A DNA stretch of 63,808 nucleotides, counting the filler, from Klebsormidium nitens (lineage: Eukaryota > Plantae > Klebsormidiophyceae), in NCBI GenBank assembly GCA_000708835.1. It is 6 parts of 6 records of this genome, joined end to end, with 100 filler letters (N's around TTAATTAATTAA, not from the genome) between each part and the next. Parts side by side here need not be neighbours in the genome. Positions count along the whole stretch, not along the records: positions 36,066 to 50,313 come from DF237888.1; 5 more parts are not named here. One strand, 5' to 3'. A program made the position numbers and the translations under genes. Shown in pieces: positions 30,779 through 62,070 of this stretch (within the stretch, counting starts at the first letter, position 1; the number at the start of each line of letters is the position of its first letter). A model generated the notes under the pieces. That model did no database searches. It had not been told where the DNA came from and was given only the letters and a program-made list of their open reading frames with translations.

Positions 30779-31305
30779 CCCGGGGTGGCAACTCCCTTTT
30801 TAAAACATGTCATGTGCGGAGTAAAACACCCCGTTTGGCTTGCTCCGCCCGTTTTAAAACAGTTTTAAAACGTTGTAAAATGGTTGAAAAGCGCCCCAAA
30901 GACGTTTTTTCTACGGTTTTTTCGGCTTTTCTTGTTTTCCGTGCACATATTACATCCATCCAGATTGAAAGCAATCAGCTTAAAGATAATAAAACCCGAA
31001 TATGCGAAGCGGAAGGCATTTTAAAACGTTTTAGTTGTTTTGCTGTTTTTAAAACAGGGATATTTTCAGCCCATCTTGGACGCACATAGGCTTGCGGCCG
31101 TTTTGGTTGTTTTATTCTGTTTTAAAGTGGTTTTAGAATCGGATGGGGGGTCCATTTCCAAAAATAAGGGACGTTTTAGGCACCTCTCGACGAGCTCTAT
31201 CCGTTGGTTATAAATAAAACCTTAGCGCTATTCGTTTTATGCGGTTTTAAAAAAATAAGACGAATAAAACACAAGGTGTTTTAAAACTTGAGTTGCCACC
31301 TCGTG
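30779..31305. mobile_element. MITE family 1, full copy, 8-bp TSD (hAT/P-like)
   Basis: Ends CCCGGGGTGGCAACTC / GAGTTGCCACCTCGTG (16-bp TIR, 2 mismatches); TSD CATGTGAT at 30771-30778 and 31306-31313. Confidence 0.92.
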
Positions 31306-31758
31306 CATGTGATGGACCGTGATCGAAGGTGATTGGACACCTTCGACTCCTGGCACGCCATCATTGCGTCCGAGCCTTGACTTCTTTGTCACGAGAATCG
31401 TTGAGGTCGGGGCGTCTAGGCTTACAAGTGGTTCGCTAACGCACTACGCTCCTACATGCCCATGAGCCGGGCCCGAGCCGGGATAGCCCATATGTTGCCT
31501 CAGTGGCCCATACGTGGCCCATACATGCTGCAACGGAGTAATATTAGTTGAGAAACGAAGGAAACAATGAAAAGGGATTATATCCCATTCGACAGCTACT
31601 TGGATCAATGCACAAATGCAAGGTGCTAAATCCGCCTAGCTATAAATTGATAAATAACTGGGTGATAACTGGCCCTTCTCTTGCTTCTCAGCTGCAGACT
31701 GGCGGCTCGAGAACCAGGAGGTTTTGCTATGGGACTATGAATAATTCCTTGCCAGGCT

Positions 31759-32004
31759 CCCGGGGTGGCAACTCCCTTTTTAAAACATGTCATGTGCGGA
31801 GTAAAACACCCCGTTTGGCTTGCTCCGCCCGTTTTTAAACAGTTTTAAAACGTTGTAAAATGGTTGAAAAGCGCCCCAAAGACGTTTTATCTACGGTTTT
31901 TTCGGCTTTTCTTGTTTTCCGTGCACATATTACATCCATCCAGATTGAAAGCGATCAGCTTAAAGATAGTAAAACCCGAATATGCGAAGCGGAAGGCATT
32001 TTAA
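31759..32004. mobile_element. MITE family 1, truncated copy
   Basis: Near-identical to the first ~245 bp of 30779-31305. Confidence 0.88.
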
Positions 32005-32214: not shown

Positions 32215-32279
32215 ACAATATACTGGGACGAGTTCGATATGAAGATTCATAGACTCGAATCGTCACATGTAAGGTAACG

Positions 32280-33239
32280 TCACGGTCCTTTACTGAATTC
32301 GATGCCGGCGACGAATCGACTGAGGTAATTGTCAGACATTGGCGTTGTAACGTCGTTGAGCCGTGTCAAGAAGTACGCCCTTGGAATAAGGACCAAAGAC
32401 CGTTTGATATATTGCGATAGCCGTTTGCTCAATTCAAACTCCTGGCGTCCATACCGAGATGCAGTTTTGAAGGTCGTAAGTGTTAAGACGAAAGAGTCTT
32501 TCAACACGTTGCCAGATTGCTCGTGCACACCCTGCGCTTCGGCGCTATAGAAGGAACCGTCTGGCTTTTGTAGAGAGAGATTGCTGAAATCCCGACGTTT
32601 TGGCGGCTCGAGGGTATTCGCGGCTAGAACGAGATGCTGAAAGACCGTTTTGATGTCGTCACGTTCTAGCGGTCTCCCAAGTTGGTAGGTGTGGACGATC
32701 TGCCGTCTGATCTTTCGCCCGAGCTCTTCCATTTTTGCCTTGATTCCTGCCATACTGATCCAGTTTTCTTGCTCCCTTAGAGTAGGCGTTTGACATAAGT
32801 TTTGACTGCTCTGCTTGTTTTTCGCCAAAAGGAACGCGGCAAAGAACAGGTCGTACGCTTCGCCCCATTTTCGTGACTTTGAGATGGCCATCAGGGGTGT
32901 AAGCTTGTTGCAGAGGCTTCCTGGAGACCATGCCGCCTTTGCGGCGTTGCTTTGGCGTTTTCTTATGGCGTTCACGATGGTGCCGGCGTCTCTGATCCAA
33001 TCTATGTCTGTCGGCAGCTCCGCCGTTTCATTATTGGTGATTAAGCCGTATACGATCCTTAGGCTATTGATGTACTGGGAGCAAGTTGATTCGGCACGAT
33101 GTGAGCCGTCCTGTAAAACACTGAAATGAACCTGCTCACCACACATAGGGACTGCCCTCAGCTCGTTTGCTTGGTTGTCCCTGGGTGCTTCTTCGGTGCT
33201 TTGCTCAATTGCCATTGCTATTGTTCTGATCGTATGCAA
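32280..33239 (-). CDS. Tyrosine recombinase (virophage/PLV/NCLDV-like), C-terminus degraded or truncated
   Basis: QHLVLAANTLEPPKRRDF (catalytic R) and FKTASRYG (catalytic K); colinear with the YR at 45800-46854; the HxxR/H/Y region is not intact before the gap. Confidence 0.8.
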   Translation of the reverse strand: MHTIRTIAMAIEQSTEEAPRDNQANELRAVPMCGEQVHFSVLQDGSHRAESTCSQYINSLRIVYGLITNNETAELPTDIDWIRDAGTIVNAIRKRQSNAAKAAWSPGSLCNKLTPLMAISKSRKWGEAYDLFFAAFLLAKNKQSSQNLCQTPTLREQENWISMAGIKAKMEELGRKIRRQIVHTYQLGRPLERDDIKTVFQHLVLAANTLEPPKRRDFSNLSLQKPDGSFYSAEAQGVHEQSGNVLKDSFVLTLTTFKTASRYGRQEFELSKRLSQYIKRSLVLIPRAYFLTRLNDVTTPMSDNYLSRFVAGIEFSKGP

Positions 33240-34242: not shown

Positions 34243-34750
34243 TCAGATCAAATCTCCACGAACCTTTGAAAGATTGACAAGAGCATCGAGATTGAGATCC
34301 ATGACTTCGGAAGTTTCATCCCAAGAACGACTAGCGTAAGTTGGCGATTGTTCACGTTCCAGCTCGTGGCTTCTGTGATCAATCAAAAGCGGAGCGTTCC
34401 TATTTCGATGTGATCGTCGTGCTCTTCTCACCCGTTCGGCTCGTTTCAATGCGGTCGACCATGAAACATGTACCATATACGGACTCCCAAAGAGGCCAGT
34501 TCTATCCCACCTTGTCTCAAAAACCTTCGTTTCTTAATGAACGTACAACCCTCCGACATATGTGCTTTAAACAAAACGGCCTACACAAGGCTCGTGAGCC
34601 AGCCAAAGTTCCAACGTCCAGCATAGTACTTAGGATGCCAAACTCGGTGTGGGTGCGTATTATGGCAAGTCTCACCGATTCCAGTATTTGTCGATCCATT
34701 TCAGCGATAGCAACCCGATCACGTGGCTGAAAGCCAAAGATCACGTCCAT
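34243..34750 (-). pseudogene. Gene X copy 1 (hypothetical, homologous to 44607-45533)
   Basis: MDVIFGFQPRDRVAIAEMDRQILES.. matches MDAILGYRPLNRAAILEMDRHVLES..; single frameshift at an A5 run (~34519-34523). Confidence 0.75.
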
Positions 34751-35069: not shown

Positions 35070-35854
35070 CTATGTGCTCCTTGGAGGGGTAATTATGCAA
35101 GGCTCCACTGCAGCCTCGACCTCGGGTTGGCCTAGCTCAGCAAGCAGAGGGGCCCCAGACGGCCTACGAAGCAAGTCGTCAAACTCGCTCACGTCTACCC
35201 CATCCAAGAACTCTCGAACTGCAGACTCGAGCTCCATCGTATAACTCCAGATCAAAGGAACCTCACGAAACTGCAACTTTGTCAGCTTTGCCATTCGAAG
35301 GAGACTCTTCTCATCCAATCTGTACTGATAGTCGGTTAACCCCGCACCCGACTCATAGTTCTTTCCCTTTCCTCGCCTGGCTCCGCGAGAGACCTCCTTA
35401 GGCTTGCCGAGCTTCAGACCCATCCACCCCAAAAGACCATTCACCGCCGCCTTGAGCTGCCCTGGCAGCAGATGAACGTGCCCCTTCTCGGGTGCCGGCA
35501 ATCGCACGCCAAACATCTCAGGAGGACGACGGCCTGTCAAGGACGGCCTATCCCCAGCAAACTTCGGACACCCCTTGAAAAACTCCGTTGCCCGGTGAGC
35601 TTGTCCCGCAACCCTCCTGCTAGTAACGAAGGAGTAAACGCCTGGTCGAAAGCATGGGAGAGGCCCAGACCCGACTCGATCAACTCTCTCGCAATTTCGG
35701 CTCTCGCAGGATCGAAGCTTCTAGGGCCCATCGCCTTCTCGACCAGTAAGCGACCCGGGAGCAGCACTTTCAGGAGATTCATCAAGGGCTCCGAGAAGGG
35801 GGACTTGTAGCCGGCCTTGGTTTGCAGGAAGAAGCTTTCATTGAGCTCCTTCAA
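35070..35854 (-). pseudogene. C-terminal part of a large protein, possibly an origin-binding/replication helicase; frameshifted
   Basis: Two ORFs are joined by removing a 14-bp insertion at ~35528-35549; LKAAVNGLLGWMGLKL..RRGKGK..YQYRL loosely recalls C-termini of UL9/CyRepA1-like replication proteins (inference). Confidence 0.35.
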
Positions 35855-35965
35855 CCCGTAGAATGCGCAAGCCTCGTGCTTGATAACCTCAACTGTGACG
35901 ATTACTCTGATTAGGTCTAACGTCGTTCTCGCATAGTTACGCTAACCAAGTGTTCTGTCGTCTGA

Positions 35966-37690: not shown

Positions 37691-38175
37691 GTAAGAGTCC
37701 CGCACTCGCTACCTGCCACCGCAATGTTTTTGCTCATTGTGGAGCTTCAACATATTGGTTGATGTACACGTTCCTTGTATGACAAAGCCTTTTTGGACGT
37801 GTACGTTGATCAGCATGAAGTCTCAGGGTGGTGTACATTCGTTGTGATTCAATTACGATCACGCTTGTTGTTGACTTTTGAAAGCGGATTTAACATATTG
37901 GTTGATGTACATTGTTTTCTCGAGGGAACGCCCCATCTGCAAAGCTTCTGATTAGCATTGATTGTGCTCACTTCGTGATCGTCCACGAGATTAGTCTCAT
38001 GAGGATCATTGTCTGTTAGCTTGCAGCAATTGTACAGCCTGCTTCATTGCTGAAGGTTGTGCAGCTTGTCATTTCGTGTATAACCGTTATTATCTGTTTT
38101 ACTACCTGCCCTGAAGGCATGTTTTTCTTCAAGAAGGCATGCCCAACTCTCTAATGACGACTCTTTTCCTTCCAG

Positions 38176-38420
38176 GTGGCGGCGGACCGTTTTCGCGAGC
38201 TGGGCTACCCCGTTCTCTCGGTCGAGATCATGTGGGACCGTGAATCGGACGAGAAGAAAGTCAACCTCCCGGGCGCCTGGCAGACATCCACGCTAACCAG
38301 TGCGCGCCGTTCACAACGGCCTCCCAATCAACGTAATAGATGTGCCCTGCTCGCGGTCGAAGTGGAGCCGTAAAGTTCCATGTTATTTTGTAGGGCGTTA
38401 GTATTGGATATTGGTTGGTG
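38176..38420 (+). pseudogene. Remnant of a Prim-Pol N-terminus, paralogous to 48028-48360
   Basis: ELGYPVLSVEIMWDRESDEKKVNLPGAWQTST aligns by eye with NVGLYAIPVRLFWNAEKGTKEVDFPKNYAHIT. Confidence 0.5.
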
Positions 38421-42186: not shown

Positions 42187-42684
42187 ATCATGGAATGTGA
42201 GCTCTGGAAGAAAGATGGTGGTTGCTTCATTTGCCTTGAACAGCATGCAAACGAGTCAAAGAGGTGCTGCAAGAGCTTCGTGTCGAAGCAAGCTTTGGAA
42301 GGCCACCGCAAGCGAACAGGGTGTGAGCCTTGGAAGCTACCTAGCGATCGTGTGCCCTCCAAGTATCGCGGCCTGGAGCCGGAAGCGGCTTGTCACTTGA
42401 AGCGTCAGAGCAACAGGGCAGCCGTGTCAAAGTACCGGACGACCCTCGATGGGGAGCGAGCCGTCCATCGTGCACGGCACATAGCCAACTACCGCCTCAT
42501 GGCACGCGATGCCGTGCCCGCTCTCCCGATGCCCAAAGCACCGGTTTACGTTCGGCCGCCTATCTCGTGGCTCATTGCCGATGCTGAGATCTTTGCGCAG
42601 GATCTGAAGGAGAAGTTTGATCGGGGCGGGATCGTGCTGAGCCACGCGACATGGTCCCTGCGGTTTCATCCAGACAAGGTAGAG
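42187..42684 (+). CDS. Exon encoding Zn-finger-like, basic and HPDK motifs
   Basis: TTGCAG acceptor and GTGAGT donor; CCKSFVSKQALEGHRKRTGC, KRQSNRAAVSKYR, LRFHPDK. Confidence 0.5.
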
Positions 42685-42941
42685 GTGAGTCGACTCTTTC
42701 GCTTTGGTTTCGCCTTGGATCAGAAGTGTCACTGATAGTCAGGCTGGCAAATCGTGTACATTTTCCATGAATCAGAGTACATCGCTCAATATTTCGGTCG
42801 ATTGGTCAAGGTTTCGTGTACATACACTTTCATCGATCGAATGACCTTTTGCAAACAGAGGAAGAGTCGACAGCGAGATAGGGACCTGTAGCGTGGTCGA
42901 CGTCATCATGAGCGTCAGCTCGCATGGAGCCCCTTTTTCAC

Positions 42942-43680
42942 CCCAAGCCGTGCTTTTTGTTAAGGGGGTATTTGAGTCGATGGCGGGCTTGTCTTTTTGT
43001 TCTGCTTGAAGTTTTTAGATGTATAGATCAGCCTGTGCAAATTGTCAGGGGCAAGTCTTGCAAATCCCACCCCAAGCCGTGCTTTTGTTGAAGGGTATTT
43101 GAGTCGATGGCGGGGGCTTGTCAAATTGCACTGTTTGAAGATTCTTTATGTATAGAAAGCCTGTACAATTTGTCAGAAGCGAGTCTTACGAGTTCGACCC
43201 CAAGCCGTGCTTTTTGGCACCATCAGAGTCGCTGGTGCACCGCTTGAAGATTCTTTACGTAGAGAATTATCAGGCGCGAGGGTGACGAATTCGACTTGGT
43301 CCCAAGCCGTGCACTTTGTTGGGGCTCTGATGCAGGGCTTGTCAGTATGCACTGATTGAAAATTCTGGGTGTATAGAAGAGCCTGTGCAAATTGTCAGGT
43401 GCCAGTTTCGACCCCAGGCCGTGCACTTTTTTGGGGCTTTGATGCAGGCTTGTCAATTTGCATTGGTTGGAGATTCTAGATGTATAGGATAGCCTGTGCA
43501 AATTGTCAAGTAAGGCTTCGACCCCCAAGCCGTGCGCTTTTCTGAACAATATTATAGTCGATCGTGGGGGTTGTCAATTTGCACTGGTTGAAGATTCTGG
43601 ATGTGTAGGACAGCCTGTGCAATTCATCAGGGCCAGGCTTCGCCCCCAAGCGGTGTGCTTTATTTTTGAGAGTGACCAAA
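42942..43680. repeat. Tandem array, 7 units of 102-129 bp
   Basis: CCCAAGCCGTGC-like anchors at 42942, 43071, 43199, 43301, 43413, 43524, 43645; AGCCTGTGCAAATTGTCAG recurs. Confidence 0.9.
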
Positions 43681-44170: not shown

Positions 44171-44606
44171 GGGAGCACCTCCGGCGATTTGTTCAGCACT
44201 TCACGGGCTCTTCAAACGGCCTGAACCACGAGCAATCAAAGGCTTGCTACGCTACCGAATTGTTTGCCCCGCTCAACGACGAGCGATTCAAGCCCGGTCG
44301 GACCGCTCAAAAGGCCGGTGGCATGCTGTGGAGAGCGTGGTTGTCGGTCGAATGTGCACTCATCGACGACTACTTAGAATATCTGGTCGAGTTCGACGAG
44401 TTCATAGCAAAGGCAAAGCAAGCGAGCCAAGAGCTAGAACGGGCACGTGAGAGGTGGATTCATGAGAGGCTCGAGCAAAAGTTCAAGAACTCGAAGGCAT
44501 ATAAGAGATGTATGAACAATCGAAGTACCGAGTAGAAGTAGCGAGACGGATGTTTGCAATGGTACCTTGTGAATTTTCTTTGCGAACGATATTCCAACCG
44601 TTTTAA

Positions 44607-45533
44607 ATGGATGCAATCCTTGGTTATCGCCCATTGAATCGGGCTGCAATCCTCGAGATGGATCGTCATGTACTCGAATCTGCACGGTCCGCAATCGTGC
44701 GGGCATATCAAGAATTCGGATTGCTTAGTACAATTTTGGATGCTGCTGCCTTAGGTGGCATGCGAGGACTCCATAGTTTGGACATACGGCCATTTTGCTT
44801 CAAAAATACCCGTATTATACGTTTTTTGTCGCCTTCTCAAAAAACTTCAAAAATACGGCCATTTTCCAACCCTGAAGGTCGCGGCCCCTTTTTTTGTCTC
44901 AAAGCAGCCAGAAGCTCCAATTAAGAGGGATTAATGGTGCACACTTATGTGAGGATCTTATCGATTTATCGGGCACTCAAATGTTGATGTTAGTTGTTTC
45001 AATCAGGCACAAATGTTGTCAGTTTTGAAAAAGGCATGACGTACTTTTGCCGTATTTTCATTTTCGCTGTCAAAAATACTCAAAAATACTTGGTTTTTGA
45101 CCCCTCTGAAAAATACCCGTATTCCGTATGTCCAAACTATGGAGGACTCACACATCCATTCAATCTAGGCCACATAACTCGTGCTCTAGTGAGATCCCTC
45201 ATTGCGGAAGGCTTCAACGCCTGGTGGGACAAGAGCGGCTTGAATGGCCCGTACGGAGTGAAAGTGGACTGGAGAGTCGCATTAAACAGCGCACAACGCG
45301 CCAGACGCCGGGCTCGCCGTCTACGCTCCAAGGTTCGAGAGGTTTCGCATGAGGTCGAGAGCCCTCTCCCGACGGCTGGCAAATACCATGATGATTGCTA
45401 CGAGTCTCCACGATATGCCTCTAGCGTTGCTTGGACTGATGATGTTGAGCCAATCTTGGACTTGGACATGCTTGCAAATCTAGAGAAGGCTCGCGTGGCC
45501 GAGGAATCTCCAGACAGCTCCTCCCCCAGATAA
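44607..45533 (+). pseudogene. Gene X copy 2 (182 aa once the MITE is removed)
   Basis: Joining 44607-44771 to 45150-45533 gives an uninterrupted ORF (..GMRGL|THPFNLGHITRALVRSL..) colinear with gene X copy 1. Confidence 0.85.
44772..45141. mobile_element. MITE family 2, 370 bp, perfect 18-bp TIR, 8-bp TSD
   Basis: CATAGTTTGGACATACGG / CCGTATGTCCAAACTATG; TSD GAGGACTC at 44764-44771 and 45142-45149. Confidence 0.95.
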
Positions 45534-45799
45534 TAGGATGGCTTAAAAAGCCTCATTCAATGAAAAATGTACATCCATATTCATAGTATCCAGCCATATT
45601 CATATTTCGTACGAAAACATATTAGTCATTTTGCTTTTTAGCCGGCTTCTACAGGTCATGATAACCGTTTTCACCTTTAAAAGCTGCTACGGATCTCAGC
45701 TTGGTTGATTCGATTTTGAACATCAAAATTCACATTATCTGAGGTTGGGGAATTGGCGTTGGTTAAAATTTTCTTGGCAGTATCCAGAAAACGTGAAAG

Positions 45800-46854
45800 A
45801 TGCAAGAACTTGCTGAAAGCACACGCCATATAACCACCGTAACCAAGGGTGAAAGGCTGCTACGCACGGTCTTTGATGACGGCACTCGAAAAGAGCTCAC
45901 GATCCAACAGTACATGAAGCATGTTATGCGTCTGTTTCAGAGTTTCAAAAGACAGCAAGACTTCAACAGCTTGGGTTGGATTCAAGATGCCGATGCAATC
46001 ATCCGGTACTTTCAGGAGACATATTCTACCAAACTCTCCATGCAAGCCACCGGAATAACCCCCCTTTAGTTGTTGTGCGTAAAGCATTTCCGAATGACAA
46101 ACAACTCTATGATGCTTACTATAAGCGGTACACTGAGGTTCGAAAGCTCATGGATGAGTCGAAGCCCCCTTCCCAGCAGTTGACGGAGCGCGAAGCATCA
46201 AACTGGAAAACTTTGGATCAAATTAATGAGCGAAGAGTGGAGCTGCAGCGGCACGTCAATCGCAAGTTCCTGCACAAAAAGCCCAAAGAGTTGACCACCG
46301 AGGACAAGATCACACTCATCCGCCATTTGATCTTGTGCCTCTTTACGTATCAGCCGGCTGTCCGCAACGACTACTCAGAGTGCCAGATCATCCGCTTCGA
46401 GGATATCGGAACCCCTGAGGCACGCGAGCTCATATCCGGCTCCAGAAACTACATGTTGGAATTTGAAAGGGACCAATTTCGTCTTGTTCTGAAAGATTTC
46501 AAGACAGTGAAGCACCACGGCCCGACAACCATTGACATGTCGACGAGAAGTAACAACGTGATTGCTGAAAGCCTCCAGGTGTTTCCACGAAAGTATCTCC
46601 TGTCTCGCATGAGGGCACCGGATAAGCCAATGAGCAGAAATTATCTCACCAAATTCTGCTCGACCGGGCTCTTTAAAGACGCGGCTGTTGGCAGTTGTCT
46701 TTTACGGAAGATTTGCGTCTCAACCGCAATGAAGGATGCCCCAAGCTTGCGAGAACGAGATGAATTGGCACAACAAATGTTGCATACCGCCTCTATTGCT
46801 CAGAGAGTGTATGAGAAAAAGTACCTCCCTGATGGATCAAAGATACGATTCTGA
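45800..46854 (+). CDS. Tyrosine recombinase (virophage/PLV/NCLDV-like) with one frameshift
   Basis: PAVRND (R), DFKTVK (K), GSCLLRK (xxxR), MLHT (H), RVYEK (Y); a C6 run at 46059-46064 splits ORFs 45800-46069 and 45976-46854. Confidence 0.88.
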
Positions 46855-46959
46855 CGAATTCGCAACCCACTGAACGTGCTCCGCAATCTGGCAGACGTTT
46901 TAAGATACTTCAATGCTCGTGAACGCATTCAAGAGCTCTGCGCTCGTGCTCATTAAGAC

Positions 46960-47105
46960 ACCTCAATACTTGTGAAGGCGACCAAAGGAAGGCTTGGTGC
47001 TTTGGGATCATCCAAAGTGTCCAAAGAGGACAGCTGAGGCATATCGAATCCAGCATCCATCATCGTTGAGTTGTGGTTTTATGAAGCTTCTTTGTTCGAC
47101 CGGTA
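46960..47105 (-). pseudogene. Partial diverged duplicate of the small ORF at 47564-47866
   Basis: GGAAGGCTTGGTGCTTTGGGATCATCCA...GTTGAGTTGTGGTTTTATGAAGCTTCTTTGTTCGACC matches ~47600-47717. Confidence 0.8.
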
Positions 47106-47112
47106 ACTACTA

Positions 47113-47526
47113 ACTACCCGCAACTACCTTCTTGAGTTTGCAAAGGGCAGCTATAGGCTTCATCTCAACTCGTACAAGACCGATAAAACGCATGGGCCTC
47201 AAATTCTCGACATACCAGTCCGACTAGGCAACGCAATTGCAGAAAGTCTGTCCATCTTCCCTCGAAAGTACCTTCTAAGCCGAATGAGAACACCAGATGC
47301 CCCAATGGGATCGGGATATCTGACCAAGTTTTTGGCGGCCATCTATCCTGATTCAAACATGGGCTCGTGCCTCCTTCGGAAGATCACCGTCAGCAATGCA
47401 ATGCGAGATGCTCCGAGCCTTTCTGAAAGAGACCAGCTCGCAAAATCCATGTTACACACAGCATTGATAGCGATGCGTCACTATGAGCTCAAGTACAGAC
47501 CTGATGGAAGTCGCATCCAATTTTGA
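47113..47526 (+). pseudogene. 5'-truncated second tyrosine recombinase (catalytic C-terminal half)
   Basis: RNYLLEF..YKTDKTHGP..FPRKYLLSRMR..GSCLLRK..MLHT..RHYELKY, colinear with the YR at 45800-46854. Confidence 0.85.
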
Positions 47527-47563
47527 ACGGTTCAAAACGTCCACTGGCCGTTCGTCAGCTCGT

Positions 47564-47866
47564 TTAGGATACTTCGATACCTGCTGGGAACGAGCCCCAA
47601 GGAAGGGTTGGTGCTTTGTGATCATCCAACGTGTTTAAAGAGGCCATTCGAGGCATGTCAAGTCCAGCATCGATCAGTCGTTGAGTTGTGGTCTTATGAA
47701 GCTTCTTTGTTCGACCACTCACGTACCTCTGATACGCCTTGCGTAGTAAAATTGCTTCGTGATGTCGATAATAATATGCCCTCATGTTAGCATTGTGCTG
47801 CTTCGGATGAGTTTTTGCGTATTCCCTGTGCTTTTGGCAAGCTTGACACGGGCATGGAACATGCAT
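47564..47866 (-). CDS. Small basic hypothetical protein with CPCQAC and YYYRHHEAIL motifs
   Basis: 100-aa intronless ORF between the YR and the primase-helicase; its C-terminal part is duplicated at 46960-47105. Confidence 0.6.
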   Translation of the reverse strand: MHVPCPCQACQKHREYAKTHPKQHNANMRAYYYRHHEAILLRKAYQRYVSGRTKKLHKTTTQRLIDAGLDMPRMASLNTLDDHKAPTLPWGSFPAGIEVS

Positions 47867-48027
47867 CTCAGAGATCTTGTCAGAGTCATTCGAAAGTTGT
47901 TGTGCATTTGATGGACCATCTCTAAGTCCTGCTGATATGTGAGATTATTTTTCTTGTGCCTCGACCGCGATCCAGATTTGAGGTGCGTTCAATTGACGCA
48001 TTTTTTTTTCTTGCGTTACACAAGAAC

Positions 48028-50304
48028 ATGTCTGCACCAGGCATGGAACAAGCCACCGCCCCAGGACCTCAGGCCGCCAAGGACTCCAGGGCCCTAGGGC
48101 TCACAGCCGTTGCAGACGAGCTTCCATGGCTGTCAAACGTTGGGCTCTACGCAATTCCCGTGCGCCTGTTTTGGAATGCGGAAAAGGGTACAAAAGAAGT
48201 CGACTTTCCAAAAAACTACGCACATATCACAACGCCAGGGTTGTGGGAGCAATCCATCAACGAGGCAATGCGACAAAGGATGGACGCCAATGGAGTGGCA
48301 ATTCTGACAGGCCCCAGCCAATTGATTGTTATTGACGTCGACGTGTCCAGCAGTGATACAAAGAAACCAGACATTGAACTCTGGGACCGTCTTGTCGAGA
48401 AACACGGCGAGCCTCAAACACTCAAAGCACAATCAGGTTCCGGCGGACTTCATTTCTACTTTAAGGCCAATTCGCCGGGCCTTAAGTGCACCCGTAACTT
48501 CTCAGGCATCAAGGTCGACAAATCCGTTTATGGTGTTGATGGTCGGGCTCGTGGAGGGGTCGTTTTTGCCTACCCTGCACGCTACGTCAAAGATCAGGGC
48601 AAACTTGCGACATACAAATGGATCAATGGGCCTCCGAGCTTTGAGGCATGCCAAGAAATGCCTCCTTGGCTCACAAGTTTTTTGAATGACCACGTTCAGC
48701 AGACTGCAGCGGACGAGATCGACACAGGAAAGTTTGTCGAGAGGCACGGATCACGTGAGAATGACTCAATTGCCACACCATCTGCGATGGATCACGCAAC
48801 ATCGATGCCATCAGCACCTCTCGAAGATGTGCAAAATACGGTGGCCTTGCCCGGATTGGAACGAGCGCTCGAAGAGATAAAGAAAATGCTCCATGCAAAG
48901 GTTCCAAACGACGCCAGCACCTTCAGTGGAGTCGGAGAGAGGACTCCAAATGGGTGGCGAATCTTAAAGTTCAAGACCAACGGCATCCGCACATGCTTAA
49001 ATGGCCACCAACACGTCTCGAACCAGTTCAGCATCTTGAGCAACGGAGGCGTCCTTGTGTACCGCTGTCTGAGTTTGGAGTGCATTGATCAACCAAAGCC
49101 TCTACTCGGCACATACTTTTGGCCGGAGTGCTTGCCTCTGAGGGCCGATGGAAAATTCATCGAGGACTGCGAACGCTATCTGCTCCCCTTCAAGCCATCG
49201 GAGGACAAAGACCGCAATAAGAAGAAGAGCAAAGAAGACGACGATCGCACAAAAAAGGCAAAAACGGATCTGCAAGATCTCATATTGCGCATGATGAATC
49301 ATTATTTTGCGGTGGTTGTTGGCACGACGAGGGCGGTCTACTTCGAGACCATCTACTCGCGAGACGCGAGCGGTCGCATCCAGCAGGAGGAGACGATCAA
49401 CCGGTCCGGGCACAACTTTCTTGAGAGGTGTAAGAATTTACAGCTCTGCAGTCTGCCGGGCAGATCAAAGGAGGTGGCCAAGTTTTGGGAGAGCAGTCCA
49501 AAACGCCGCGAATACGATCAGATCGTGTTTGAACCAGAGCTCTCCAAGGTCTCTCCTCGGCAGTTCAACCTGTTCTGCGGGCTGAATTTCCAACCAATCG
49601 AGCGCAAGTTGACAGCTGCCAAGCTCGTCGAGTGCGAAGGCAAGATGCCAAAGCTCATCTGGCACATTCGCAATGTTTTAAGTGATCGTTCCCCCGAACG
49701 CTTTGAATACAACATAAAATGGATGGCGCATGGAGTTCAGAGGCCTTGGCGGAAAATCCAGGTCGCTCTCGTGTTCCGTGGCCCGCAAGGGTGCGGCAAG
49801 TCGACATTGTGGGATTTCTACGGCCTCAAGATACTTGGGAGCAAACTTTACTTGTATTGTAATGAGATTGAAAAGGTCATTGGACGGTTCAATTCTCTTG
49901 GAGTCAACAAGCTCCTAATCGTCCTCGACGAAGCTGGGAATTGGGGTGGGGCATACAAGATGAACGATCGAATAAAGTCTGCAATCACGCAAGAGACGAC
50001 GTGCCTCGAACATAAGGGGCAAGACGCGATCACCGTGCAAGACAGGAGCAATATCGTGTTCACGACAAATCATTCGTGGCCGGTGAAAAGAGAAGCCGAT
50101 GATCGGCGATACTCTTGCCAAGAGTGCTCTGGAGTAAAAGTGGGAGACAAACACTACTTCGACGAGCTTCTGGCGGAGCTGGAAGATCCGCAGACCGCCT
50201 TTCATTTCCATCAATACCTGTCGTCGATCGACATTGTTGTCAATTGGGATCCCAAAAAGATGCCAGTAACGACTTGGGGAGAGGAACTGAGGGACCATTT
50301 GTAA
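48028..50304 (+). CDS. Primase-helicase: bifunctional Prim-Pol domain, Zn-finger, SF3 (D5/DUF5906-like) helicase
   Basis: NGVAILTG..LIVIDVD, SGSGGLHFYF, DGRARGGVVFAYP; CLNGHQHVSN..YRCLSLEC; Walker A GPQGCGKS, Walker B IVLDEA, motif C FTTN, DDRRY; intronless; ATG at 48028 assumed. Confidence 0.92.
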   Translation: MSAPGMEQATAPGPQAAKDSRALGLTAVADELPWLSNVGLYAIPVRLFWNAEKGTKEVDFPKNYAHITTPGLWEQSINEAMRQRMDANGVAILTGPSQLIVIDVDVSSSDTKKPDIELWDRLVEKHGEPQTLKAQSGSGGLHFYFKANSPGLKCTRNFSGIKVDKSVYGVDGRARGGVVFAYPARYVKDQGKLATYKWINGPPSFEACQEMPPWLTSFLNDHVQQTAADEIDTGKFVERHGSRENDSIATPSAMDHATSMPSAPLEDVQNTVALPGLERALEEIKKMLHAKVPNDASTFSGVGERTPNGWRILKFKTNGIRTCLNGHQHVSNQFSILSNGGVLVYRCLSLECIDQPKPLLGTYFWPECLPLRADGKFIEDCERYLLPFKPSEDKDRNKKKSKEDDDRTKKAKTDLQDLILRMMNHYFAVVVGTTRAVYFETIYSRDASGRIQQEETINRSGHNFLERCKNLQLCSLPGRSKEVAKFWESSPKRREYDQIVFEPELSKVSPRQFNLFCGLNFQPIERKLTAAKLVECEGKMPKLIWHIRNVLSDRSPERFEYNIKWMAHGVQRPWRKIQVALVFRGPQGCGKSTLWDFYGLKILGSKLYLYCNEIEKVIGRFNSLGVNKLLIVLDEAGNWGGAYKMNDRIKSAITQETTCLEHKGQDAITVQDRSNIVFTTNHSWPVKREADDRRYSCQECSGVKVGDKHYFDELLAELEDPQTAFHFHQYLSSIDIVVNWDPKKMPVTTWGEELRDHL

Positions 50305-50313
50305 CGATTACGA

Positions 50314-50413
50314 NNNNNNNNNNNNNNNNNNNNNNNNNNNNNNNNNNNNNNNNNNNNTTAATTAATTAANNNNNNNNNNNNNNNNNNNNNNNNNNNNNNN
50401 NNNNNNNNNNNNN
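50314..50413. other. Assembly gap linker
   Basis: N-run with TTAATTAATTAA. Confidence 0.98.
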
Positions 50414-50678
50414 CCGTGTTATACCCTGACGCCCACTTTAATACCGACGACTTCCGGGCGCTGTTTGGACCCCACTCCAGGTGGGTAGCCGAATCTGGAT
50501 TTTGACCGTTCTGATAGCGCATTGGCTCCGGCAATTTTGGGTCTCCAAATTCGCGGTCCGCTCATCGGACGGTGCAGAATATTCTGGATAAAATATAGTA
50601 GCGTCATGCTGACGCCTCCTGACGCAATGGGAAAAATGGCTGCCAAGCTCAAAGAGCTTCCTCATTTGACCTAGGGTC

Positions 50679-51576
50679 GGCCCCGGAACATGGAATACTT
50701 GACCTCCGATATTCTGTATTCCAAGGTTCCAAAAAGGCAGTATTCTGTATTCTGAGGTGCTCAAGTATTCTATATTCCGTTTCGCAAATGGGAATTCGGA
50801 CGTTTTGAAAGGTACGTAAGAAGTGGGGTGGCAACTCCCGTTTTGGAACATGTTCTCTGCAAACTAAAACAAGTCATTTGGCTTGCTTCGCCTGTTTTGA
50901 AACATTTTAAAAACGTTTTAAAATGATAAAAAGGCCCTTTACGGACCTTATATTGATATCTTATGTCTTCTTTTCGGTGTTTGTATGCATATTGTAACTG
51001 CACAGAACGAATGAAGCCCGCTTATGTCAAATAAAACAGGAATTTGAACGTTTTAAAACGTTTTGGTCGATTTTCTGTTTTAAAACACGGGATATTCGGA
51101 GCCCCATCTTGCACGCACATGTCTTACAGGTGTTTTGATTGTGTTAATCTGTTTTGAAACCGTTTTAAAAACAAAGGGGGGGTCCATTTTACAAAGTAAG
51201 GGGTGTTTTAGGCTCCTGTCGATGAGCTCTATCTGTTGGCTGCATTTAAAACTTCGTCGCGCTTCGTTTTGAAGATGTTTTGAGGATTAAGAAAAGTAAA
51301 ACAAGCAGTGTTTTAAAACATGAGTTGCCACCTCGTGAGTGCGCTTCTCGTAAAGAGTATTGTACAATCTTTTCTCTTTCAAAGCGTGCTTTTGGATGTC
51401 TTTCTACTTCAAAGTCAAGGATTCTGCCGTTGTTTTCCACATATGTGTAGTATGCTCGGAAAGGCCCTGTATTCTGTATTCTAGGATTCCAAGGCCCAAC
51501 TTGAAATTCGGGTATTCCGGATTCTCCGCTTCCAGAAATGGGTATTCTGTATTCCAATATTCCATGTTTCGGGGCC
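50679..51576. mobile_element. Non-autonomous element with 19-bp inverted ends and subterminal TATTCTGTATTC repeats
   Basis: GGCCCCGGAACATGGAATA (50679) vs TATTCCATGTTTCGGGGCC (51558-51576), 1 mismatch; no TSD identified. Confidence 0.55.
50825..51337. mobile_element. MITE family 1, diverged copy nested in 50679-51576
   Basis: GGGGTGGCAACTC...GAGTTGCCACCTCGTG; internal AT-rich blocks colinear with 30779-31305; TSD not preserved. Confidence 0.8.
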
Positions 51577-51694
51577 TACTAGGGTGCTGTCATCAACGAC
51601 GCTCCTCATGGTGCTCAGGATACACATGAATGAAGCTTAGTAATCCGTAGTGCATTCAATTTGCAAGCTGTACAAACTTTTTCCAGCTCCAGAG

Positions 51695-52223
51695 CACGAG
51701 GCAGTGGCAACTCAAGTTTTAAAACACCTTGTGTTTTATTCATCTTATTTTTTCAAAACCGCATAAAATGATTAGCGCTAAGGTTTTATTCATAACCAAC
51801 GGATAGAGCTCGTCGAGAGGTGCCTAAAACACCCCTTATTTTTGAAAATGGACCCCCCCTTCGATTTTAAAACCACTTTAAAACAGAATAAAACAACCAA
51901 AACGGCCGCAAGACATGTGCGTCCAAGATGAGGCCAAAAATATCCCTGTTTTAAAAACAGCAAAACAACCAAAACGTTTTAAAATGCCTTCTGCTTCACA
52001 TATTCGGGTTTTATTTGCTATAAGCTGATTGTTTTCAGTCTAGATGGATGTAATATATGCACAAAAACCAAGAAAAGCCTATAAGACGTAAATAAAACGC
52101 CTTTGGGGCGCTTTTCAACCATTTTAAACCGTTTTAAAACAGTTTTAAAACGGGCGAAGCAAGCCAAACGGGGTGTTTTGCTCCGCACATGACATGTTTT
52201 AAAACTAGAGTCGCCACCCCGGG
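51695..52223. mobile_element. MITE family 1, full inverted copy, 8-bp TSD
   Basis: CACGAGGCAGTGGCAACTC...GAGTCGCCACCCCGGG; TSD CTCCAGAG at 51687-51694 and 52224-52231. Confidence 0.92.
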
Positions 52224-53573
52224 CTCCAGAGATGCTCATTTGCCCCTTGTGCCAACGCTCCGAAGCGTATCGTATTGTTTTTGTGGAACGAAAAGCACTT
52301 TCTTCTGCCAGCCGTTGCAGAAAGCCAATTGCAGGCTTAGACGCACTCAAAAAGCATGTCAATCATCTTCAAACATGAGCCCAACCTGAGAGAAAAGCGT
52401 GAATCTTGCAAGAAAAGAAAGCTGTGAGCTGCGCTGTGGTGCCACAGCCTCAGGTCATGGCTTCCGCAGCCATCAAGCAGCTCGAAGTCGCTACCTCCTG
52501 CTTTGTCCCTGTCAAGCTCATAACAGTCGAGTCATGGGTTGTTTACTTTCATTAGGCCCCTTCTTCTCCGACATTGGCAGTTTGATCAAGCGGTTCAAGT
52601 TTCCAAAAAGTTCATCGAACGGCTCCGCTATGACTTTCGCTGATCCCTCAGGCAAATCCAGATTCGGCTACCCACCTGCTCCTATGGAGTGCACTGTATA
52701 TGTATGTGCGCCGCTCAGCGGGTGCCCCCAGAAAGGAACTAGACGTGGGCTAGGAGGATACCGCCCTCTCGGGCGGTATCCTCCTAGTACGGTTTATATG
52801 GCTTCGGAACAGCGCGTGGAGAACCCGGGCCGTTTTGAGAGTGGTAAAATGCAATTTGTGCCCGGTGGAAAGCATCGGTCATACTCACCGGGTACCGTCG
52901 AGCAGTCGGTACGTCCTGAATCTACACATGGTCGAGCCCGTCGATGCCTCCAGCTCAAGCGGCATCGGCGGTACTGAGACCGTAAATTTACTTTGATTTA
53001 GGAATTGTTTAATCTATAAAGTTCTGGCGTTCCGCCCGCTTATCATTGACATTCAATGATTGATGAAAGCATCGCAACGGGGCGCCAGAGAAACGTGCGC
53101 ATCGAACGATCATCAGAGGCTCTCTTCAAAACTTCTGAGCGGTCGATGAAGCAGCTTGGACCGGCGGACGGTAAGGATCAGCAGGATAGCTTGTCGTTTT
53201 GTGGCACAGGTCCGAAATTTCGTTAATTTGCAGCGTGGCACGTGAGAAGGTTTGTCGATTCTCGGTGTCTCCTAGCCAAACACGTTCCACGAGTCGAACT
53301 GGCAACCGGAGGGGCTTGGCACTGCGCCATACCGCCGGGTATTCCCCGGGCACAACCTTGTCTGTGGAAATGTGGCAATAGGGGGTTTTATAGAGGCACG
53401 CAGCACGCTCCTTTTAAAGTATTAAGGAAAAGTAAGCTTAAACAAAACACTAAACACTAAAAGCCTAACCTACACAAATGAACCCAAACCCACCCTAACC
53501 CCCAAATTAACCCCATCCGTCCCAGGGCTGGTGATCTTATTTAAACCAGGGTCACCGCATGATGTATGATAGC

Positions 53574-54606: not shown

Positions 54607-55864
54607 ATGATAGCAATCGATTCGAGGGAGCTCAAAACTAGCAATATTCGGATATCATCGTAGAAATTGACCAAAAAAATTGCTATTCAAAATGATACGA
54701 GCTGAGGGCTTTCTCCAATTTTTCGGCCTGATATACAACATTGCTGGAGATCTGCCTCGACTTTCGAGGATCTTGAGACCAACGATGGCACATGATCCCC
54801 TGGATCGTCGAAAACTGGTGCAAAATTCGAAATTCCGTATAGCCTTTACAGACAGACTGTCAGAGTCTGGGTGACGTATCTGATATCATTTTGATATCAT
54901 TGGTTTTGAAAAGGCAAAAATAGCAATAATGATATCATAACACTTTGCAGTGAAAAAAGTATCATCCGGTGAACCTGATTTAAACTACGGTACGGTATCC
55001 TATTAGATCCTATTTCTATTGTCACTCAATGGAAATTTCAGTGATTCGTCCCGGCCGGCCAGCCACAGCCTGAGGCAGCGGCCCCCGCTTGCCCGGTTGC
55101 ACCCGCTAGGTAGGACCTACCGTAGTATATCGATAGGGTACCGGTATGGTAAACCGGCCAGTTGAGGCCACCATAAGGAGTTCGTTTACCAGCTACCGAG
55201 CTCGGGCACCAGCCGGGGTCCCTTTAAAGAGGGCGTCTGCGGATGCATCCGCATGACGTATGCTGACGCGCGCCCCGCGCTGGGTCCTACAGTGGAGTTG
55301 AAGAAACGGGGCCGAAAAGAGTGATTGACTGCCTCCCTTGAAATACGCTGTGAATAACGACCTTCCGCGCCGCAAAGCGGGCCTGATCGAAGGCAGACCT
55401 TTACCACAGCCTCGGACTCAGGCTCTCGCCAGCTGAACCAAGAAAGGGCGCGTCTTCCTGCTAGGATATCGCTTTCAGAATGGGCGCGGCCTTGTCTATC
55501 GCAGCTCGTCGCTCACTGGCATCCAGGACAGAGGGACTGCACCAGCTTGGTCATGGCTTCTGCAGCATCGCTCTTGGGGTTTCCAGTTTTGCCGGCACTC
55601 ATTAGGAATTTGACGTGAAAGTATGTTGGCAGAGATAGTGCACAAGCTGCTCTTCTTTGGAATATTTTTAGCTCTTGCAGCTTCCAAACGGCCCGTAGAA
55701 AACGGATGGTCTGCTGCCGGCCGTCCATTGTCCTTCGACGGTCAAGATCAAACAGGAGCCCAAGGCGTTCAGACAGCTGTCAGATTCGAAATCCAGGTGA
55801 GAAAAGATACATTTGCTGTAATCTACTTTGCTTTGTCATTTTCTTATCACTTTTTTTTTGCAAG

Positions 55865-58800
55865 ATGGAAGGCCCAGGAGTTTCTCCTCTTTGCTCTCAG
55901 CGCCCAGCTTCAGTGCTGCAAACATTAGACTCGAATATACCCACTGTACAACTTGGAGCTGGCCGTGCGTCAAGTGAAAGAGCAACAGTGACAAAAACAC
56001 ATCGCTCTGTATATAAACGACCTTTTGAGGAACACTCGGAAAATGATCTTCAGGGTCTTACGAAGGTGCAGCTTCAAGATTTATGCAGAGCATTCCCCAA
56101 GAAAATGAAAGTAACTGGAACACTACAAGAGTTGAGGGAACAATGTGTATCAATTTTGAGAACGTTGCAAAGTGGACAAGTGCCACAGGATCTGCCCAAA
56201 ACACGAAAGCGAGCGGTTGTAATTAGTGTTTGGCACATTCACCAAATGTGGATACACTTCAGTGGAAGCTAGCAAACAGTCTGCTGCTGTAAGTCAGATA
56301 GCTTCTGGCCAGGAAGCGAGTCTACCATCTCGACTAGTTTCCAAAAGGGCTAGGAAAACCAAAAAACCTACTTGCCCAGCAAATGAACATTACTGGTCCT
56401 TGAAACGAGATATCTGCGTAGTGTGCGAGCATCCAAAGCCTGCCGGTTTACTCATTGAGCAGCCCACACTTCCTCCCATCTCAAATGAAGGTTCAGAAGA
56501 GGTGTTTATCCTGGAGGGCCTTCAGGTCAAGGGGTTCAATTTTGTGGGACTTAGAGATGCCACCCCTGAAGCAATCAAGTCGCTCAAGGGCGAGCAGCTC
56601 AAAACAGTGTTCAGGCATTCTCACTTCCCCATGGCCAAACAGGGGAATCCGATGCGAGTAGATGACCAGAAGGAATATTTGTTGGGTTACATGGGCTCCA
56701 TACAGAAACAACTGGAGAGGGCAAAGAATGCGCAAAAGGCGAAAGACAGCCGTGGGATAAACCGTCCACAAACAGGTAACACGTAAATCAAGACTCCACT
56801 CACGTCGTTTTGTTCTCTCAGTTTCTGACCGGTGAAATGTCCAGGACATGCACATCACCTAATCTCTTATGGACTGAGTCATGACTATCTTTTGTGCAGC
56901 ATTCGGGGGGGCTGAGAATGGAGGATCTTCAACAAGGCCAGAGGACAGCAGCGGCGTCTGATCCAGCTCGGACGGTGATGTCACCAGAGGTCGAGCGGGC
57001 TTCAGGTAGGACATTGCATCACAAACCGCCTCTTGGGAAAGGAGGGACAAAAGCATTACTGTTTGTCACGTTTGAATGCCTGTACATGAACTTAATCTTG
57101 GGGCTGTTCAACAGAGTAATTCAACAGGGTGACTATTCTGCTCAATGACATTGTGGGTCCGACGCAAGCAACTCTTGTTGATCATATGAATGTCCAGGCA
57201 GCTGCATTCAATTGAAGTCACGTGCTTTTTGGCAGGCACTTCTACCGCTGCTAAGGCTTCCACAGCAGCGACCGCGGACAGGAAGGCAGCAGATGCCCTA
57301 AGGAAGCGAAAGGCGAGAGAACAACTCAGAGATGCAAACGTCAGATCAGTGCGAGTTGAGCTGCCGCCGACGCTGGTGGAGAAGCTGGAGTTGCTTGCTC
57401 CTTTGTACGGTTATCAAGCTAGAGTCTCGTCGACGGGGGATTGGGAGTCCGCCAAGGTGGGTGGCTTCTTGGGAAAAGTGGTGGAAGACATGTTTGCGGG
57501 GCCCGAGCAAGCGCCCAGTCTTTGGAAGGCGTTGAATCTGTATTGGATCGGCCACCCAAGTATGATCGTAGACGTGGCTCCCTTTCCTCTGGCCAGGCAA
57601 CCGGAAGACAGCACCAATCCCACCACCCCGGTCCCGCAGCCTGCACGCTCCCCATTCTCGTTTTCTACTCCTAGCGCCACCCCCCCCATATCCCCTTATT
57701 CTGGGAGCACAAGCACGCCGTGCTCGTATCATTCTCGAGGACCTCCGTTCATTCCGCCCCCTTATACGCTGAATCAGAGAGCACAAGAGCAGCAGGCTCC
57801 CCAGGCTATTGTCATGGAAGAGGACGGAGAGGAGGAGAGTGACGCGGGAGTCGAGTTGCAGGAAGGCACGCAGGCGCCGGAGGTGTCGTTCTTGCATGTC
57901 TCTAGGGCTTACCAGCTGATGGAGTTTTGTGCAACGCATGGCGCTCATGGCAGTGTGATCCCTAGTCCTCACACATGGTTGGGCCAGTGCCTTGCTGTGC
58001 GGCTGAGGTGCTCGGGGTGCGGCATTGAGTTCACGTGGATTGCGAGCGAGATGGAGCTCCTCCACGGGGCCCCAGAGCTGAACGGCCGGGGTTATGCGGC
58101 GTGCCTGTCGGACGGCGGGACTTACGAATTGCTGCGAGCATTTTACGCAGGTGAGTTGGCATCAATTTGGTTGTATATGAACTTCTCCTAGCTTAGCAGC
58201 TGGTCCTGGTCTCTGGCCTTGACAAGCTTAGATATAAGTTTCTCATGGGACTGATCTGGTTGGTTCGCGGACCATAGGATAGTTGGTACTCGTAACCATC
58301 ATCTGGCACTGATCTGGTTGGCTTGCAGTCTGGTCGTTGAACATTGATACATGTCTGACTTGCCTGCTCAAGTTTACTGTGAGTTCTGAAACCAAGGCAG
58401 CGGCGTGAGACTCTAAGTTGCGATTAGCGGAAGCTTTTAGTACATAGGGTTGAGGATTGCGTGCTGGCTCTGCTGGCCACCAAATCAGTGCGTCTCTCGT
58501 CCTTGTTTGATAAGCGATGAGGACCATTCAACTTCTCAGCGTATATAAGGCCTGCATGAAGGATCATGGCCGCGGCAAAGCAAAGAAACCTCGGATTGGT
58601 GGGGTCCTGAAGTTGCTGCCGGGGAAAAAGGCGGTCTTGAAAGCTTATAGCTTATGCTACGATAAGATCCCATTTCAGCCAACCAGCAAAGCTACAAACT
58701 TTTGCCAGCTCTATCGTATCGCTTCCAAAATGAATCGATCTCCTTTGCAGGCATGAAGATGCCGCCCCTTTCCAAATGGGCGTTCTATCGATTCCAGAAG

Positions 58801-59887
58801 CACCGCCTGGCGCAGGTGGTTTTTGCGATGCGGGACGAGAGCTTTGCCCGCGCGCTACAGCGGTGCGGGGCGGACGTGCGGGTCGAGGTGGACTGCCAGT
58901 GGGACACGGATCAAGACGGAAAGAACAGTTGCACCGAGTTCCTGGACAACCAAACAACCCTCATCCTTCATGCAGAAGTGGTGAGCTCTAAAGAGGGGAT
59001 CAAGGCGCAGGCTATGGAGACGGAGGGTTCGGGGCGGGGCTTGCTTCACGTCAAGGAAACTCTTGAGGGGTTGGGTAAGCGGATGGTCGAGGTGGTTCAT
59101 GATGACAACAGCAGTGTCGACGTGAAAATAGCTGGGCTTCCCGGTGTACATAACAGCAAAGATATGTGGCATAAGATCAAAAACGGGTTGCGTCCAATGA
59201 TAGAGTCTCTTACCGCGAAACATGAGGAGTTGCAGACCCTTAATTCTGAGATGCTGCTCAAATCAGGTGGCAAGCAAGGGCTAGCTCAAACGGTTGTGAA
59301 TCATTTCTATTGGGCTTGCGACGAGACGAAGAAGGATGGCAACGACTCAGTTACGGATCTGTTAGTCAGGTTTGTAGGGAACCTGGTGCACCATCTTCAG
59401 GATTGCCACGACTTTTGCCAGCACGTTCATGATAAGTTAGAGTACACTCCACTTCGGAACTTGGGGGTATTGCAGCTAGGGATCTGGAGGAAGGTCTCCG
59501 AGAGTTCGCTTTGGCGAACAAGATTTGTTAAATTAGACCCGTTGCAGAGAGTCCGCATGCGTCGAGGGCTTGCATAGGTTGAACATAAAGTACGCCTGCA
59601 AAACCTTCTTCTTCGGGCTTAGCTTCCCTATAAGGATAGCGTTGGCCCAGCTGGACTGGAATTCTCACCGTCACTTGTATTTCAAACGGATAAGCTATGA
59701 ACGTGCTAGGAAGCAAGAAATTGGAGCATGCTCGGAGCAGGTAGAGGCAAAACCAAAGAAGGTGCGCGTAGAGCAGAAACCGTACAACTTCAGGAGTGAG
59801 CTTAGGCGGAGAGTTTTCTATCCGTTTAGCCCAAGAGAGCGAACATGGGACCGATATGTGCATCAATCGGATCCAAGTCGCAACTAG
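55865..59887 (+). mobile_element. Spliced DDE transposase, Kolobok/Mutator-like, with N-terminal SAP-like motifs
   Basis: VEVDCQWD (D 58891), AQAMETEG, VVHDD (D 59101), DMWH (59161), VNHFYW, HHLQDCHDFCQH, VEGLH (E 59564), LAQLDWN. GT-AG exons ~55865-56218, 56263-56774, 56901-57005, 57237-58150, 58751 onward; frame break at ~59547. Confidence 0.75.
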
Positions 59888-60169
59888 AGAACATTCAAAA
59901 GTTTCATAGCATCAAGCCTTGTTTTCATGTCACTGTCAAGCCCCACTGATATTCTGCTTTTGAATTGATAACTGATCCAATTAACCATGCACCGTTCGTG
60001 CCAATTGTTGTTTGGAACGTGGTATGTCAAATGCTCACACGCTCGAAAATTGCTTGCCATGTGTAGGTGCAATTTTTTGTGTTGCATAAACCATGCAACC
60101 TCAGTGAGCAAGTATCAAATTAGATGTCTGATAGGTACGTATAGTCGATCAACCATAAGCTCGCGCGTG

Positions 60170-61901: not shown

Positions 61902-62070
61902 ATTAGCTCTAGAATTACTACGGTTATCCGAGTAGTAAGGTACCATCAAATAAACTATAACTGATTTAATGAGCCATTCGCAGTTTCACAGTATAAAAGA
62001 GTTTATACTTAGACATGCATGGCTTAATCTTTGAGACAAGCATATGACTACTGGCAGGATCAACCAGGTA
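61902..62070 (-). rRNA. 18S rRNA: 18S rRNA, 5' 169 nt (rest in gap)
   Basis: Reverse complement begins TACCTGGTTGATCCTGCCAGTAGTCATATGCTTGTCTCAAAGATTAAGCCATGCATGTCTAAGTATAA. Confidence 0.99.

Follow-up and report, generated by a model that had tools for sequence, protein, structure and literature searches.

The described systems closest to the element considered here are Polinton-like viruses (PLVs) of the PgVV group (Gezel-14T type), which carry a virophage/PLV-type tyrosine recombinase (YR) beside a primase-superfamily 3 (SF3) helicase, without introns and in algal genomes (PMC4642659, PMC10120064, bioRxiv 10.1101/2022.07.28.501842). Among the information-processing genes of PgVV-like PLVs, none is more widespread than the YR (bioRxiv 10.1101/2022.07.28.501842). 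For the PLVs associated with entomopoxviruses and the Tetraselmis S2x PLVs, an inverted repeat, a primase-helicase and an adjacent YR constitute an end module, in which helicase domains are swapped under a shared primase (PMC11296320; bioRxiv 10.1101/2025.10.09.676808). The comparison also extends to virophages, to transpovirons, which are capsid-less PLV derivatives (PMC11071308), and to Cryptons, YR-only eukaryotic transposons (named in PMC12220804). Here we analyze a related element from the streptophyte alga Klebsormidium nitens (assembly GCA_000708835.1), located at 44607-50304 of a 63,808-nt stretch of DNA, hereafter the window. The window joins 6 parts, its gaps are all represented by a 100-base placeholder of identical size, and the element lies in the part taken from DF237888.1 (36,066-50,313).

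The stretch 44607-50304 holds one copy, broken and chimeric, of a cassette that occurs many times and is composed of three plus-strand genes, namely a gene we call X, a YR (YR1) and a primase-helicase (Table 1). All three are collinear with uninterrupted natural homologues, so that introns are not required, in agreement with the intronless cluster proposed in the initial annotation of this DNA; the fourth gene of that annotation, a small basic protein, is unproven, its frame being on the minus strand and the block common to its two copies giving no coding signal. The copy has decayed: X is split by an insert, YR1 changes frame, the tail of a foreign YR intrudes and the helicase is cut. As in the PLV end modules, the YR and the primase-helicase are adjacent and helicases are exchanged; those modules, however, lie inside a complete virus (PMC11296320; bioRxiv 10.1101/2025.10.09.676808), whereas the Klebsormidium cassette was found without a virus body. 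The differences from the PgVV group are that no capsid, penton, ATPase or terminal repeats were seen, that gene X matches no family, and that Prim-Pol with an NrS-1-like or D5-like helicase stands where those viruses have TVpol-S3H.

Table 1. Features of the two cassette copies in the window, in order of position.
Feature	Positions	Strand	Evidence
YR2, deep separate lineage	32268..33215	-	29% to YR1; 93% to intact P0082 residues 1-297 of 350; own lineage in quick tree
Second gene X, frame change near 34520	34258..34750	-	Hidden Markov model (HMM) of natural homologues, E 4e-31 and 4e-12
Gene X, 5' part	44607..44769	+	89% identity to residues 1-55 of uninterrupted 182-aa homologue P0070; 56% to second window copy
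Insert in gene X resembling a miniature inverted-repeat transposable element (MITE), 374 bp	44770..45143	.	20-bp perfect terminal inverted repeats; same 4 bases either side
Gene X, 3' part, basic helix and low-confidence tail	45144..45533	+	93% identity to P0070 residues 54-174
YR1 tyrosine recombinase	45800..46854	+	86% and 89% to intact P0064 in two frames; frame change near 46058-46066
131-bp block, first copy (3' piece of small ORF on minus strand), conserved as DNA	46971..47101	.	85% identical to 47585-47716
YR1b, C-terminal tail of YR from another subfamily	47116..47526	+	61% to YR1, 85% to P0034; separate starred clade in quick tree
Small basic open reading frame (ORF), ~100 aa, CxCxxC start, unproven as gene	47564..47866	-	ORF call; second piece of same ORF between YR and primase
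Prim-Pol with NrS-1-like SF3 helicase, C-terminal part missing	48028..50304	+	Pfam PF09250 (Prim-Pol, E 2.6e-16), PF19263 (DUF5906, E 4.9e-19)
Probable start of inserted repeat (10-mer motif) running into gap	50300..50313	+	Repeat count; motif position

The primase-helicase had been annotated as largely intact, which proved right for its two domains and for the helicase motifs (Walker A at 49780, Walker B at 49918, motif C at 50059) but not for its C-terminus: the protein matches the homologue P0002 to residue 692 of 800 and is thus about 110 residues short, and no continuation was found in the window sequence beyond the gap at 50314. Its best solved relatives are 6k9e and 6k9c, both named 'Primase' (E 2.5e-10), and proteins combining Prim-Pol and DUF5906 include a cluster (rank 4) in which Preplasmiviricota is the commonest phylum. 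The K. nitens proteins P0020 and P0022 present the same Prim-Pol joined to a D5-type helicase. The protein at 48028-50304 is a primase-SF3 helicase, a type of replicase found in PLVs. Transpovirons belong to a different class, since their SF1 helicase is fused to an inactivated pPolB (PMC11071308), whereas here DUF5906/SF3 stands behind Prim-Pol. By eye, 57 residues at 38170-38340 (+) resembled a Prim-Pol N-terminus; this candidate was rejected, with no HMM support and an HHalign value of 3%.

YR1 keeps the catalytic R, K, R, H and Y reported in the initial annotation, all five being located in its motifs (VRND at 46360, FKTVK at 46498, LLRK at 46699, MLHT at 46777 and VYEK at 46807); in the HxxR motif Leu replaces the first His, as in most of the YR family. 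Its frame change sits in a C6/T3 homopolymer run and could therefore be a sequencing or assembly error, and assembly artefacts of this kind have been reported for endogenous viruses (PMC10120064). YR1 has no Pfam match. With the model of the YR homologue P0026 (pLDDT 64.7), Foldseek returned nothing at E 0.001 and ranked Cre first (E 2.2e-3, probability 0.98, TM 0.24). The profile search collected 2393 proteins at E 0.001, and HHalign aligned the YR1 family with a virophage YR at 99.4% (E 4.8e-21). Relatives at 25-30% identity were present in 5 viral contigs, and 2 of the 2 contigs tested carry Sputnik-type major capsid genes; for the homologous YRs of virophages (Maveriviricetes, loci L001-L008) the identity is 24-30%. 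YR1 is thus of the virophage/PLV type by homology to YRs of capsid-bearing virophage contigs, OLV11 itself lying outside the comparison. The virophage YRs form a separate starred group in a quick tree of 63 rows (SH-aLRT support only; outgroup rows restricted to P0079-P0134 and 270-360 aa). In two of the viral contigs (L006, 9704-12649; L008, 8799-11453), the protein extends a YR-like domain by a fused, long C-terminal region, in which a lipase-like GHSLGG motif occurs.

Gene X is predicted to encode a small basic alpha/beta nucleic-acid-binding protein. The prediction comes from the low-confidence model of P0070 (pLDDT 49.6), in which a 100-residue alpha/beta domain is followed by a basic helix. 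One search gave 8 homologues, for which Pfam, PHROG and NCBIfam searches gave no family assignment. In the comparison with PDB structures, the best Z of 7.5 (KCTD7, R3H, Smr and SirA-like folds) is in the common range, the best score in the Atlas comparison was 0.75, and nothing was found in BFVD at E 0.001. Two other identities were rejected: a capsid, which the model speaks against with its three short strands and no jelly roll, and a DUF5759-like protein, for which none of the 8 homologues (8/8) gave a useful Pfam match and structure searches were unspecific. As a marker of the family, the use proposed for it initially, gene X serves well.

The cassette is not unique to this locus. Among K. 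nitens gene models we counted 11 members (8 of 23 primase matches plus 3 cluster members) on 11 scaffolds, all named records being from K. nitens, and 7 of the 11 splice a piece of YR onto the downstream primase or helicase, which establishes the order and orientation of these genes. One model, P0001, looked like a second identical copy; this was ruled out, because its N-terminus translates from 44611 in another frame, and it is a mis-spliced model of the 44607-50304 locus. The YR of Cryptons is their sole enzyme and they are not known to have a replicase, whereas the Klebsormidium YR is linked to a primase-helicase in those 7 of 11 models; this sets Cryptons apart by definition rather than by a comparison of recombinases. 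For further records, linkage was read from contigs of equal size rather than from the DNA itself, K. nitens gene models and the weak match P0023 having been excluded beforehand. Seven of 17 primase contigs are equal in size to one of 39 YR contigs (the chance of even one is ~0.02), and the same holds for 6 of 10 X contigs (5 of 8 in the first count; chance of one ~0.01). X and primase never shared a contig size (0/8, with two added X records also unmatched). The window itself holds a second X-YR pair, on the minus strand at 34750-32283. The genes are thus linked in other copies, as judged from gene models, YR-primase and X-YR contig pairs and the second window pair.

The YRs fall into at least three subfamilies and one deep lineage in the quick tree. 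Between subfamilies, synonymous sites are saturated and the proportion of nonsynonymous differences (pN) is 0.26-0.32, a sign of long purifying selection on the trio. Several further family proteins cluster at 90% with K. nitens records, and as far as the sequence searches reach, the cassette family seems confined to K. nitens and its kin: nothing close was found in viral contigs scanned with the primase, helicase alignments, X, D5-type proteins, an outgroup YR set and the ORF that precedes the second X, nor in metagenome contigs (scanned with YR and helicase) or prokaryote genomes. The family appears undescribed, no account of it in Klebsormidium having been found in the literature searched, whose reach left out most subscription papers.

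The chimeric character of the copy comes from the YR1b tail, whose junction coincides with a short repeated motif near 47101-47120. Behind the end of each YR lies a copy of the 131-bp block, and the two blocks are 85% identical compared with 63% for the neighboring YR tails. The small basic ORF overlapping the block has no Pfam, PHROG or NCBIfam match, and in the 92-bp block common to both of its copies the mismatches by codon position are 6/5/7, whereas the YR tails give 48/41/82 and the two copies of X 15/13/34; this lack of codon-position bias means no coding signal, and the small protein is unproven. The block was also rejected as an attachment (att) site, because its inverted arms are no better than those of shuffles (115 and 281 of 300 shuffles reach the best score). 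It reads best as a recombination tract between two YR subfamilies, and the intruding tail would likely have arrived by recombination inside the block followed by a deletion. PgVV has a recombination hotspot just beside its YR gene (PMC4642659), a possible parallel to the tract beside the Klebsormidium YR ends. Judged from the equal-sized contigs, the primase belongs with YR1: in 6 of 6 pairs whose primase is at 65-76% identity, the YR is nearer to YR1 (70-97%) than to the YR1b tail (51-64%). The seventh YR-primase pair is of the YR2 type.

How the copy ends bears on whether structural genes could be hidden in the gap, as the initial annotation had allowed. A 10-mer motif occurs 4 times in the window versus 0.18 expected, and 3 of the 4 occurrences face a gap that begins 14, 53 and 72 bases further on (chance ~1e-6). 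The helicase homology stops exactly at the first of these, and the same 10-mer cuts YR2 (53 bp before its gap) and a third ORF in front of two other gaps. The motif is a putative start of a long terminal repeat. Because homology ends at 10-mers facing gaps, the gaps likely begin in inserted repeats and not in hidden capsid genes; nothing after the gap continues the helicase, and structural genes in the gap are not favored. The gaps are evidence neither for such genes nor for the element ending there. The fourth 10-mer, at 11591, is away from gaps, and its surroundings gave no matching end accompanied by a target duplication. Another segment running into a gap, 61902-62030 (-), gave no Rfam match at the gathering score and reads like the 5' start of 18S rRNA, in which case unrelated repeats may have been joined across gaps.

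We give about an even chance to the reading that the cassette is the replication-and-integration end module of PgVV-group PLVs integrated in Klebsormidium, their capsid genes being presumably lost or off the contig. The choice posed initially, between an endogenous PLV or virophage and a capsid-less element, was well framed, and what tips it towards a PLV end module is the publication of 7 capsid genes for K. nitens, all in cluster MMPC_86, that is, the PgVV group, with 29-100% identity to in-genome references (PMC10120064 Tables S4, S5). Their number is of the same order as the 11 gene models of the cassette, and PLVs are often fragmented in short-read assemblies (PMC10120064). Among endogenous viruses, a classical virophage is unlikely, because Sputnik-type capsids were found in controls and not in the window, and because all 7 K. 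nitens capsids fall in one PLV cluster. Virophages also differ by their separate YR group and by their capsid, ATPase and protease, which are unmatched in the window: of the 47 ORFs of five virophage contigs, only the YRs match it.

Several observations weigh against a PLV end module. Searched with Pfam, which was used without a PgVV-type capsid profile, the 143 N-free ORFs of at least 100 aa in the window gave no capsid, penton, A32 ATPase, pPolB or protease (0 matches, 143/143 ORFs), in line with the initial annotation. In a control, Pfam recognized the capsids of the 2 virophage contigs tested, whereas the match of the control ATPase to Pox_A32 was no better than E 0.0013; sensitivity for a packaging ATPase is thus limited, and lacking the PgVV-type profile, the absence of capsids decides against classical virophages alone. 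No ORF longer than 253 aa lies in the 8.5 kb upstream of X, and a bare upstream side of X fits poorly with described end modules, which have structural genes on the YR side (PMC11296320). A spliced gene of two exons ends 72 bp before X and has no counterpart at the second copy, and the DNA upstream of the two window copies showed no significant similarity (p 0.16-0.86) that would define a conserved left end. Terminal inverted repeats bracketing the element, as in a PLV unit of 15-40 kb, were not found, the right end being missing. No contig with both cassette and capsid gene has been shown, none of the 7 published capsid contigs (0/7) equals a gap-bounded window segment in size, a comparison that carries weight only if both contig sets are identical, and no close relatives of the YR, the primase or X were found in the IMG/VR set.

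Somewhat less probable, in our judgement, is an autonomous capsid-less family of ~5-6 kb (X, YR and primase-helicase), derived from a PLV end module and maintained through circle copying and re-integration like an integrative plasmid or a YR transposon. Copies share X, YR and helicase and no other gene was seen in common, left flanks differ between the two window copies, and several YR subfamilies and a deep lineage have been under long selection. Eleven cassette models and 39 YR contigs of distinct size compare with 7 known capsids, no relative appeared in viral contig scans, and end modules have been argued to be mobile by themselves (PMC11296320). This element was the second option of the initial annotation and keeps a place, weakened by the PgVV-group capsids of the host and by a capsid scan that had no PgVV-type profile; no ends, att sites or empty site were defined, and the right end is cut in both window copies. 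By analogy, both halves of the idea exist in transpovirons and Cryptons, although neither pairs a YR of the Klebsormidium type with Prim-Pol/SF3. We offer as tentative the proposal of a capsid-free, self-replicating family of streptophyte algae, in which a PLV end module would have turned into an autonomous 5-6 kb unit with an exchangeable helicase, radiation into several subfamilies and recombination between them, a eukaryotic counterpart of integrative plasmids.

An unlikely origin is the debris of an inserted nucleocytoplasmic large DNA virus (NCLDV), or a mobile module carried by one that subsequently multiplied in the host genome: Phycodnaviridae-like core genes are present in the species (PMC5294986), a giant virus likewise has OLV11-like YRs (PMC4642659), and the ORF preceding the second X looks, without support from any search, like the tail of an origin-binding helicase, but none of the NCLDV core genes PolB, MCP, A32 and VLTF3 was found in the 143 ORFs, host-like spliced genes are nearby, and the compact trio lies on many separate scaffolds. 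A chance pile-up of unrelated mobile genes, suggested by the nested repeats that fill the region and by X and primase records never sharing a contig size, is very improbable and largely refuted by the recurring gene order, with the YR joined to the helicase in 7 of 11 models, contig matches of 7/17 and 6/10, and a second X-YR pair.

Under either of the two leading readings, the PLV end module or the capsid-less family, the gene products suggest how the element might propagate. Through tyrosine-linked strand exchange, the YR would move a circular form out of the chromosome and into it, and a circular donor has been argued for YR integration (PMC4642659, PMC12220804). The Prim-Pol/SF3 protein would prime, unwind and copy the circle, perhaps with functions of a helper virus, and X may assist recombination or control expression as a DNA-binding accessory. 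Activity, circles, the connection with capsid genes and the role of X are what we infer.

The DNA surrounding the cassette presents other features. YR2 has six extra bases relative to P0082 at 32283-32295 (-), which create a stop; they resemble a short duplication and may be the footprint of a transposon. The ORF 320 bp upstream of the second X (35073-35893, -) is intronless and frame-shifted, is cut by the 10-mer at 35894, and has no Pfam, PHROG, NCBIfam or viral-contig match; by eye it is like the tail of an origin-binding helicase, which no search supports. The two exons before X, 42190-42684 and 44179-44535 (+), likely form one gene with a weak C2H2 zinc finger (E 0.018) and an HPDK motif, and its intron contains a tandem array of ~115-bp units (42939-43660) and scattered short repeats. 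At 4900-5840 (+) there is a GC-rich exon (GC content at third codon positions, 0.82), in which family searches found no match and whose motifs look like those of an archaeo-eukaryotic primase domain. The ORFs at 55600-59900 (+) include a SAP-like piece and have no Pfam match, nor do the motifs at 58666-59577, which resemble those of Mutator-like or Kolobok DDE transposases. A 530-bp AT-rich repeat has four copies, at 30776-31306, 31758-32004, 50825-51337 and 51694-52226, and 25-bp inverted repeats at 50478 and 52678 enclose the last two, which are themselves arranged as a large inverted pair. Rfam gave no match in 32215-63808.

If the cassette proves to be a PLV end module, the genes with which the PLVs of K. 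nitens replicate and integrate are thereby identified, along with a new gene to mark them. If no capsid belongs to it, the cassette would directly exemplify, in a relative of land plants, the passage from an integrating DNA virus to a self-copying transposon that has been proposed for PLV end modules; it would also offer compact recombinases adapted to eukaryotes.

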